Shown here: positions 2,469 to 2,785 of the stretch, piece after piece
How positions within the stretch are numbered: the stretch's first letter is position 1
How the letters are laid out: every line of letters begins with the position of its first letter
DNA from: Polyangiales bacterium
GTDB lineage: Bacteria > Myxococcota_A > Polyangia > Polyangiales > Ga0077539
Reading direction: 5' to 3'
NCBI GenBank assembly: GCA_046351535.1
Contig: JAXLYG010000005.1
Coordinates: forward strand, 165,334-229,333
DNA length: 64,000 bases
Notes under the pieces: generated by a model
Databases searched by the model: none
What the model saw: the letters and a program-made list of their open reading frames with translations, nothing else
Told to the model about the DNA's origin: nothing
Program-made: the position numbers and the translations under genes

Positions 2469-2603
2469 GCCAGGGTAGCTCAGCGGTAGAGCACGAAAAC
2501 AAACCGGACGCAGTGTCCTCTCTCGCCACGCGGGAGCAGTGAGTCGACCGGTTACTTCCTCATCACGGACGCGGTCGCGGGTTCGAGTCCCGCTCCTGGC
2601 ACC
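2469..2603 (+). ncRNA. tRNA-mimic ncRNA, candidate YrlA-type Y RNA: canonical acceptor stem, U8A9, D-arm and T-arm but an 83-nt insert replaces the anticodon arm
   Basis: Acceptor GCCAGGG/TCCTGGC (7 bp, one GU); D-arm GCTCAGCGGTAGAGC; T-arm GCGGG-TTCGAGT-CCCGC; discriminator A; insert 2494-2576 has no anticodon stem-loop; lies 134 bp upstream of Ro60/TROVE gene on same strand. Confidence 0.5.
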
Positions 2604-2612
2604 GGCGCCTGT

Positions 2613-2688
2613 GGCGCGCGCAGTGAGATCGACGGTTACTTCAATCGAAACGAAACACACCGTCGATCACCGTTCTCGCGCGCCACGG
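2613..2688 (+). ncRNA. Second structured RNA module (long interrupted hairpin), possible second Y RNA or terminator of the first
   Basis: Perfect 10-bp inverted repeat GATCGACGGT / ACCGTCGATC with 24-nt loop, closed by GCGCGCG/CGCGCGC outer stem; shares motif CAGTGAG(A/T)CGAC(C)GGTTACTTC with the insert of the upstream tRNA mimic. Confidence 0.3.
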
Positions 2689-2785
2689 GCGCTCTACTCG
2701 TTCCCGGTCTCTCACGCGTGGGGTGTGAGGGGCCGCGGTGTCTCGCATCGGAAGCGCAACCAACGCCTCCGTGGAGGTCAACGTC

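Follow-up and report, generated by a model that had tools for sequence, protein, structure and literature searches.

That Y RNAs are encoded beside Ro60 genes and that the YrlA class of these RNAs mimics tRNA is already known; what is new here is a topology. YrlA RNAs (Rfam RF02553; S. Typhimurium, M. smegmatis, many bacteria and phages) end at the Ro-binding stem and hold a closed acceptor hairpin between the T and D arms, in the manner of a circularly permuted tRNA (PMC4201824, bioRxiv 10.1101/312249). From 5′ to 3′, their order is Ro strand, V, T arm, closed acceptor hairpin, D arm and second Ro strand. Their described features comprise the D and T arms, a V hairpin, a YUAY element and covariation of the Levitt pair (PMC4201824). 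In M. smegmatis, RNase P cleaves YrlA and CCA is added to it; the perfect 7-bp acceptor stem is the feature that makes this RNA an RNase P substrate (PMC4201824). Hairpin Y RNAs without a tRNA body are represented by YrlB (Salmonella, M. smegmatis), Yrn2 (D. radiodurans) and the phiLo RNAs Yrl1 and Yrl2 (PMC4201824, PMC12135203). The motif of the characterised Y RNAs is GNCGAAN0-1G, or CGAA, each base of which contributes 3–4-fold to binding in the phiLo system (PMC4201824, PMC12135203). In Salmonella, the rsr-yrlBA-rtcBA operon is controlled by RtcR and sigma-54 (PMC7790460, PMC9879122). Some Ro60-bearing bacteria had no YrlA candidate (PMC4201824).

Here, we analysed a stretch of 64,000 nt from a Polyangiales bacterium (contig JAXLYG010000005.1), referred to as the window, in which two candidate RNAs, modules 1 and 2, precede a Ro60 gene. 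The comparisons below make it likely that both are Y RNAs of this organism's Ro60 system, and that module 1 carries a Ro-type module fused to a tRNA body in natural order.

Anatomy of the locus

The features of the locus, all on the plus strand, are as follows.

2439–2453, +: sigma-54-type promoter-like element, TGGCAC-N5-CGC (GG-N10-GC), recognised by positional conservation
2469–2604, +: module 1, candidate tRNA-shaped Y RNA in natural tRNA order, delimited by RF00005, covariance model R1 and homologues; G2469 is position 1, A2601 the discriminator and 2602–2604 a CCG tail
2469–2492, +: 5′ acceptor strand (2469–2475), U8 and A9, D arm (2478–2492), from pairing and compensatory change
2494–2495 with 2570–2571, +: anticodon-stem remnant (positions 27–28), both pairs 100% paired and compensatory (CG, AU, GC, UA)
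2504–2551, +: Ro-type module in place of the anticodon arm, from comparison
2504–2510 with 2545–2551, +: helix P2 of module 1
2515–2520, +: GUCCUC element of module 1, a conserved motif among relatives
2520–2536, +: capped hairpin P1 of module 1, loop CAC
2536–2543, +: GCAGUGAG in module 1, recurring in module 2
2552–2558, +: UUACUUC junction of module 1, its UUAC invariant or nearly so
2557–2569, +: V hairpin of module 1
2572–2576, +: variable loop CGGUC, with C48 at 2576
2577–2601, +: T arm (2577–2593), 3′ acceptor strand (2594–2600), discriminator A2601
2604–2693, +: module 2, candidate hairpin-type (YrlB-like) Y RNA, from its fold and homologous hairpins; 17-bp outer stem P1, GCAGUGAG at 2620–2627, 10-bp inner stem P2 (2627–2636 with 2661–2670), 24-nt loop running UUACUUC...GAAACACA, GUUCUC at 2672–2677
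2786–4444, +: Ro60 (TROVE) gene, 552 aa from ATG 2786, assigned by Pfam TROVE; the ORF is open from 2738

A preliminary description had placed both modules upstream of a TROVE gene on the same strand, and this is confirmed by a Pfam TROVE match of 53.4 bits (cut-off 23) to the ORF at 2786–4444. ATG 2786, preceded by an RBS-like GGAGG, is its most plausible start. At E ≤ 1e-50, the protein has 3048 homologues annotated as TROVE or '60 kDa SS-A/Ro ribonucleoprotein'. It is distant from the characterised Ro60 proteins, and the only solved structure that it matches by sequence is the Ro60 of Thermus phage phiLo (9KOP/9L5Y, E = 4e-16). Module 1 lies 185–317 nt upstream of the ATG on the plus strand, and the same-strand linkage to Ro60 is found in 22 loci.

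Module 1 has a tRNA frame, as had been read from its sequence at 2469–2603 (D arm, T arm, U8/A9, discriminator A). The 7-bp acceptor stem pairs 2469–2475 with 2594–2600 and contains one G-U pair; the D arm reads GCUC AGCGGUA GAGC and the T arm GCGGG UUCGAGU CCCGC. The Rfam tRNA model RF00005 matches 2469–2601 at 43.4 bits (gathering score 29), with every arm fitted except the anticodon arm, where a 74-nt insertion falls inside a 2-bp stem remnant. [quoted passage not shown] The single-sequence minimum free energy of module 1 is −52.1 kcal/mol, compared with −42.6 to −47.3 kcal/mol for the comparative structure, and the fold as a whole is not unusually stable (z = −1.0). Because single-sequence folding misses the structure of the insert, the structure given for module 1 rests on comparison. 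An origin of the tRNA body from a particular isoacceptor was considered and dropped, the resemblances being generic.

Module 2 folds far more stably than its shuffled counterparts (−54.9 kcal/mol against −31.0 ± 3.3 kcal/mol; z = −7.4, with none of 200 shuffles as stable). It had been described as a long hairpin with a 10-bp inverted repeat between 2613 and 2688; the hairpin stands, but its limits are 2604 and 2693 and it includes a further 17-bp outer stem. By this fold, module 2 is a candidate hairpin Y RNA of ordinary build, in which the closing stem P1 leads through an asymmetric internal loop (5′ GCAGUGAG, 3′ GUUCUC) to P2 and the terminal loop.

The two modules share sequence elements, among them GGUUACUUC, which occurs at 2550–2558 in module 1 and at 2634–2642 in module 2. 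A motif common to both had been proposed as a single, possibly Ro60-binding helix. It is present in each module but proves to be composite. Its GCAGUGAG part is the predicted 5′ side of a conserved internal loop, at the position of the known Ro60 site. The middle part, on the comparative model, is just one strand of the variable helix P2, and GGUUACUUC is, on the same model, the end of P2 plus the conserved UUAC junction. The internal loop between P1 and P2 is the predicted and most likely place of Ro60 binding. The presumed site GCAGUGAG differs from GNCGAAN0-1G / CGAA in having GUGA in place of CGAA. No GNCGAAN0-1G was found in module 1, where GUCGACCG is one mismatch away but lies in a P2 strand that varies in relatives; an exact GGCGAACG is limited to a subset of units, one example being in L011.

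Recurrence and covariation among Ro60 loci

To place the two modules in context, we fetched 18 genomic loci with relatives of the window Ro60 (40–96% identity), including a Myxococcota MAG (L001) whose Ro60 is 96% identical. In five of these 18, RF00005 reports 'long tRNA' matches of 127–133 nt just upstream of Ro60 on the same strand. A motif scan found GCAGUGA(G/N), a spacer of 5–8 nt and GGUUACUUC, plus GUUCUC, beside Ro60 in almost every locus. This motif set occurs in two contexts, within a tRNA frame and in plain hairpins, and both RNA types with GUUCUC, GCAGUGA(G) and GGUUACUUC adjoin Ro60 in about 30 other loci. Among the first 19 loci, 13 carry the natural-order RNA on the Ro60 strand, usually within ~900 nt upstream of the gene.

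From 13 tRNA-type copies we built a covariance model, R1, which scores module 1 at 128.6 bits and separates tRNA-type RNAs (80–133 bits) from ordinary tRNAs (at most 53 bits). As an independent test, ten further loci were chosen by protein search, on Ro60 homology alone. Nine of them carry a natural-order RNA, at 74–124 bits (best ordinary tRNA, 53), and the carriers include the cultivated Polyangium aurulentum, a Bradymonadia MAG with two copies, an Aggregatilineales (Chloroflexota) contig and an alphaproteobacterial MAG. With R1, the natural-order RNA is found in 22 of 29 cellular loci; three others have hairpin RNAs only (L005, L015, L167) and two have RNAs in the canonical YrlA order (L008, L011). 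None was found in 16 viral Ro60 loci, which have canonical-order and hairpin forms instead.

Searches that started from the RNA sequence yielded little. Of the 120 stretches retrieved from metagenomes with CAGTGA-N6-10-GGTTACTTC, no more than a handful were real (L042, L126, L133, L138), almost all being chance matches. A viral scan with the natural-order pattern gave five matches; the three inspected were chance occurrences in coding-like sequence, and R1 finds no such RNA in any of them. A blastn search of phage and plasmid collections with 2469–2693 gave just marginal matches of T-arm size, and the region upstream of SRB7757, at 39% identity the nearest Ro60 in the annotated phage collection, shows no recognisable motif.

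The helices of the tRNA-type RNA are supported by compensatory change, in line with the comparative alignment of rsr-upstream regions that had been proposed as a check on the insert. Across 22 distinct sequences, 91.4% of pair cells are standard, against 39–50% when the partners are slid out of register; 27 of 36 pairs are compensatory, and none of 500 shuffles reaches any of the observed measures. This alignment had been fitted to the model, and we recounted on a plain MAFFT alignment of the first 13 sequences, which gave 88.9% paired and 23 of 36 pairs compensatory. In the tRNA body, compensatory pairs make up 7/7 of the acceptor helix and 4/5 of the T stem (both 100% paired), together with 2/2 of the anticodon-stem remnant. 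Within the insert, the counts are 6/7 for P2 and 4/7 for the capped hairpin P1, whose three other pairs are invariant; these adjoin a bulged C and give no covariation signal. P1 varies from 3 to 7 bp among copies and is often closed by a UUCG or GNRA loop. The V hairpin is weak, at 65–67% paired. Tertiary contacts of a tRNA follow the same trend: U8 and A14 are invariant in all 22 sequences, the 15:48 (Levitt) pair is G:C in 17 and A:U in five without a mismatch, and G18/U55 changes jointly to A18/G55 in four relatives. In the 21 homologous hairpin-type RNAs, P1 and P2 likewise show compensatory changes. The arrangement is not a product of chance, because it recurs with covariation in more than 20 independent loci.

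Order of the modules compared with known RNAs

Module 1 resembles YrlA in adjoining Ro60 on the same strand and in combining a Ro module with a tRNA-like module of D arm, T arm, acceptor helix and V hairpin. The YUAY element is present as UUAC, position 15:48 covaries between G:C and A:U, and the predicted Ro module extends from the position of the anticodon stem. The order of the parts, however, differs: module 1 runs from the 5′ acceptor strand through the D arm, a closed Ro module, V and the T arm to the 3′ acceptor strand, and ends at its 7-bp acceptor stem. Its Ro module is closed by a hairpin of 3–7 bp, whereas the Ro helix of YrlA is open at the ends, and it carries GCAGUGA(G/A) instead of the YrlA motif GNCGAAN0-1G.

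RF02553 has no match in 2250–2800, even at E ≤ 10. It does match canonical-order relatives, namely the element of L008 (38.7 bits), which lies downstream of Ro60 and carries the GCAGUGA motif, and that of Gordonia phage Rabbitrun (L020, 31.5 bits), both under the gathering score of 69. Canonical-order tRNA-type RNAs with GCAGUGA, GGUUACUUC and GUUCUC occur in L008, L011, L133, L138, L146, L151 and L153, and in L165 such an RNA stands beside a natural-order copy in one locus. When module 1 is cut in the P1 loop and its ends are joined, it aligns end to end with the canonical elements and beats the native order in six of seven comparisons. Being a circular permutation of the YrlA design, module 1 is not a member of the family that RF02553 models. 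The earlier proposal of candidate bacterial Y RNAs of a YrlA-like class survives as homology to Y RNAs beside Ro60, and gives way where membership of RF02553 is concerned. As judged by these alignments, module 1 adds a third arrangement, in which a YrlA-type RNA follows the natural tRNA order. A full-text literature search, with some relevant reviews outside its reach, found no natural-order YrlA with a closed Ro module for the anticodon arm; an earlier mention is possible.

The relation between the two modules can be read from the order of their parts. Hairpin-type RNAs run P1-5′, GCAGUGAG, P2-5′, UUACUUC ... AAACACA, P2-3′, GUUCUC, P1-3′, and module 1 runs D arm, AAACAAA, P2-3′, GU(C/U)CUC, closed P1, GCAGUGAG, P2-5′, UUACUUC, V, T arm. 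In relatives of the hairpin type and of canonical order, the strands bearing the motifs of module 1 come in reverse order. The pieces are the same and are reordered, such that the tRNA body replaces the hairpin loop and P1 is closed rather than open. In Rabbitrun, the units upstream of the annotated Ro-like gene consist of CAGAUGCG(A/U)AG, a helix and GUUACUUC ... GUUCCCUG, and one of these units has a loop near-identical to that of module 2 (UUACUUCAAU...GAAAC.CACA).

Module 2 shares with the known hairpin Y RNAs a stem-bulge-stem outline and a conserved loop beside the closing stem. Its place, with the tRNA-type Y RNA on one side and rsr on the other, is that of YrlB in M. smegmatis. It differs from them in its loop motif, GUGA(G/A) where they have CGAA, and in the ends of its terminal loop, UUACUUC...AAACA(C)A, which it has in common with the junctions of the tRNA-type RNA.

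Three further systems invite comparison. Yrn1 of D. radiodurans, which is bound to the Ro60 orthologue, resembles module 1 in having D-like and T-like elements in natural order; in Yrn1, however, the Ro helix takes the acceptor position and an anticodon-like arm is present along with a doubtful D arm (PMC4201824), the reverse of module 1. The tRNA-like domain of tmRNA also ends at an acceptor stem and has a T arm and a large insert at the anticodon arm. Unlike tmRNA, module 1 has no reading frame and no pseudoknots, keeps an intact D arm, has an insert of only ~65 nt, lies outside any SmpB context and is linked to Ro60; it also lacks the tmRNA G3:U70 pair, position 3:70 being C:G in 19 of 22 copies. 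Finally, the permuted tRNA genes of red algae and archaea show circular permutation to be compatible, at the level of the gene, with a tRNA-shaped RNA, as it is here. Those genes are repaired to decoding tRNAs, whereas the module 1 and YrlA orders yield no anticodon.

A rough neighbour-joining tree of Ro60 proteins, in which we put one misplaced row (L002) down to an ORF-picking error, has the natural-order loci in one clade nested among canonical-order lineages. This faintly suggests that the natural order is the derived one; an ancestral natural-order form, from which the permuted YrlA would have arisen by tandem duplication, is less likely. Within a single Ro60 clade, and in L165 even within one locus, the Ro site and tRNA body are found in either circular order; nature thereby supplies strong evidence that each module acts as a unit of its own.

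Proposed expression and release, and possible function

Transcription, processing, CCA addition, Ro60 binding and an effector role of the RNAs are what we infer from the arrangement of the locus and its relatives. The GC of the promoter-like element precedes position 1 of module 1 by 15 nt. TGGCA(C/T)-N5-xxGC occurs within 70 nt upstream of the tRNA-type RNA in nine of 13 loci, with near-matches in two more, and a sigma-54-type motif is also present in L162, L164 and L167. In the G+C-rich window, the pattern by itself is not above chance (three matches, 3.9 expected), and for this reason the evidence for sigma-54 lies in positional conservation. Neither a sigma-70-like promoter nor an intrinsic terminator was found in 2200–2900. 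In L013, the gene directly upstream encodes RtcR (PF06956 + Sigma54_activat), and in L007 an NtrC-type activator is found upstream; the motif and the RtcR neighbour parallel the control of the Salmonella rsr-yrlBA-rtcBA operon (PMC7790460, PMC9879122). In the window, no sigma-54 activator, RtcB or RtcA adjoins the locus, and the nearest activator, of the FHA-GAF type, is 23 kb off.

This layout would also suit a cis-acting 5′ leader of the rsr mRNA, through which Ro60 or tRNA-binding factors would control rsr translation or stability. The promoter-like motif and the rsr start flank the two modules, the lack of an intrinsic terminator in 2200–2900 makes co-transcription likely, and YrlA and YrlB of M. 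smegmatis come from one precursor upstream of rsr (PMC4201824). We nevertheless regard a leader as improbable. In Polyangium aurulentum (CP079217.1, locus L162), a promoter motif, a tRNA-type RNA (474–601 of the locus) and a hairpin RNA (about 640–715) lie 2.4 kb from Ro60; the RNA pair is followed by a stem plus U-run, and Ro60 has a sigma-54-like motif of its own. The pair is a unit of its own, which argues against a purely cis-acting leader. In L008 and L011, related RNAs are found downstream of Ro60, and a perfect 7-bp acceptor stem with a T arm, the determinant of an RNase P substrate (PMC4201824), is present in all 22 copies. A role as leader and a role as released RNA can coexist.

Much further from the data is a genuine tRNA gene with an intron that would be spliced to a decoding tRNA, a reading that we hold to be very improbable. 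It would account for a complete tRNA frame above the Rfam gathering score and for the CCG tail after the discriminator, which resembles the window's own tRNA genes (of the 13 in the array, ten have CCG or CCA at this place and two others CCT). Yet removing any contiguous segment fails to produce a 5-bp stem with a 7-nt loop, and the sole remaining hairpin, V, has loops of 4–9 nt and no U33. At ~65 nt, the insert is far below the size of a group I intron, as the preliminary description had pointed out. Its core is common to hairpin RNAs without a tRNA body and to RNAs in canonical YrlA order, and the linkage to Ro60 holds in more than 20 loci. The acceptor sequence and discriminator vary (A in 11, U in five, C in four and G in two of 22 copies), as expected without a fixed amino-acid identity. 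A decaying tRNA pseudogene or insertion remnant, functionless and near Ro60 by chance, can be set aside almost entirely: tRNA genes are insertion targets, and the window has a tRNA-Asp gene split by a 229-bp palindromic element, but here there are no terminal inverted repeats and no target duplication, and compensatory changes affect every helix and the tertiary pairs across Ro60 proteins 55–85% identical, from several phyla.

For the preferred reading, two Y RNAs of the Ro60 system, we propose the following course. The sigma-54 promoter at 2439–2453 would give one precursor containing module 1, module 2 and the rsr mRNA, from which both RNAs are probably released by tRNA-processing enzymes. 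RNase P would cut at G2469, and a 3′ end would be made after A2601 and perhaps completed to CCA; of the 22 copies, 10 have CC directly after the discriminator, as CCA in four and as CCG in six. The freed, L-shaped RNA of ~133 nt would bind Ro60 via the internal loop and present its tRNA-like elbow and acceptor end as an effector or tether module, while module 2 would serve as a second Ro60 partner without a tRNA body. With a varied discriminator and C:G at 3:70, no fixed aminoacylation identity is apparent.

The end product of module 1 would have the shape of processed M. smegmatis YrlA, with the 7-bp acceptor stem left open, perhaps CCA-tailed, and the Ro module where an anticodon would be (PMC4201824). 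The two differ in how the open end arises: in M. smegmatis it is made after transcription, with the RNA in two pieces, whereas the gene order of module 1 already encodes it, in a one-piece RNA. Speculatively, and with the balance rather against it, an open tRNA-like acceptor end may be a functional requirement of this Y RNA class that was reached twice: mycobacteria would have arrived at it by cutting a permuted precursor with RNase P, and the present Ro60 clade by permuting the gene once more. On that view, module 1 would mature into a tRNA look-alike with a CCA tail, possibly charged, which would carry Ro60 to machinery acting on tRNA ends, such as the CCA-adding enzyme, EF-Tu or the ribosome, or to the RtcR/RtcB response to damaged tRNA. 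The free acceptor end makes processing, CCA addition and charging directly testable in the cultivable Polyangium aurulentum, and thereby brings the role of the tRNA-like domain within experimental reach.

The arrangement also bears on annotation. The Rfam YrlA model misses natural-order RNAs, which may explain some of the Ro60 bacteria without a YrlA candidate. ARAGORN calls fragments of natural-order RNAs as tRNA-His, tRNA-Asp or tRNA-Arg; these calls, together with scores above threshold for the tRNA model, leave such RNAs prone to mis-annotation.

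Flanks of the Y RNA/Ro60 locus

Two small hairpins lie at window positions 2309-2385, between the stop codon of the cytochrome-c gene (2307) and the promoter-like motif, and the gene directly 3' of Ro60 encodes an alpha-2-macroglobulin family protein:

2310-2355, small hairpin CUCACGG...CCGUGAG
2359-2376, small hairpin CAGCCC...GGGCUG
4544-8716, + strand, alpha-2-macroglobulin family gene, 1390 aa

A GAUCGAAAC stretch is present in the small hairpins, neither of which carries any of the Y RNA motifs; the transcript of the upstream gene may end at these hairpins. In relatives, unrelated genes occupy the position downstream of Ro60, and the alpha-2-macroglobulin family gene therefore probably stands outside the Ro60/Y RNA system.

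Variation at related loci

The arrangement at L162, a locus of Polyangium aurulentum (CP079217.1), separates the two components: 2.4 kb and two opposite-strand genes lie between the Y RNA pair and Ro60, and the motif TGGCAC-N5-CTGC is found separately 5' of each.

440-720, region of the Y RNA pair of L162
2973-2987, Ro60-side motif of L162

At locus L003, the natural-order copy (the tRNA-shaped form that ends at the acceptor stem) has an additional small hairpin (3790-3815) within the 5' strand of P2, the helix of the Ro-type module, resulting in a three-way junction. Natural-order-like copies are also present at L017 (3369-3503 and 3625-3755), whose contig was assigned by binning to a Methanotrichaceae archaeon. 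An archaeon could have acquired them by transfer, or the contig could be misbinned.

ARAGORN reports Y RNA fragments as tRNA-His(atg), tRNA-Asp and tRNA-Arg (L008, 5858-5936; L010, 3693-3767; L014, 3896-3968), calls that are likely mis-annotations. tRNA gene arrays adjoin the Ro60/Y RNA loci of several relatives, both viral and cellular:

L011, 5670-9223
L018, 5886-7856
L020, 5663-6490
L153, 967-2368
L170
L062

The tRNA array of the window and its interrupted tRNA-Asp gene

The window itself holds a dense tRNA gene array:

54655-57116, + strand, at least 16 tRNA genes by ARAGORN
56272-56600, third tRNA-Asp copy, its D loop interrupted by a 229-bp element (56295-56523)

The Rfam model and R1, the covariance model built from natural-order copies, give a few additional tRNA-like matches here. 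Within the array, blocks are repeated (among them Glu-CTC, present three times, Asp-GTC, present twice, and Arg), and most of its genes are followed 3' by CCG, not CCA. The element within tRNA-Asp has terminal inverted repeats (CTCTACTGTCCCG / CGGGACAGTAGAG), is accompanied by a CTAG duplication and encloses a long palindrome (56331-56399 with 56420-56488). It looks like a MITE-type insertion.

A vault-protein homologue

A homologue of the Major Vault Protein is encoded 26 kb from the TROVE gene, near a sigma-54 activator and adjoining an ATPase gene:

25768-27597, + strand, FHA-GAF sigma-54 activator
27691-30441, - strand, ClpB-type ATPase
30630-33371, + strand, 913-aa protein with domains of the Major Vault Protein, namely MVP_shoulder (40 bits) and Vault_3 (31 bits)

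Ro60 and the vault protein TEP1 both have TROVE domains, which makes the occurrence of a vault-protein homologue and a TROVE protein in one genome region curious.
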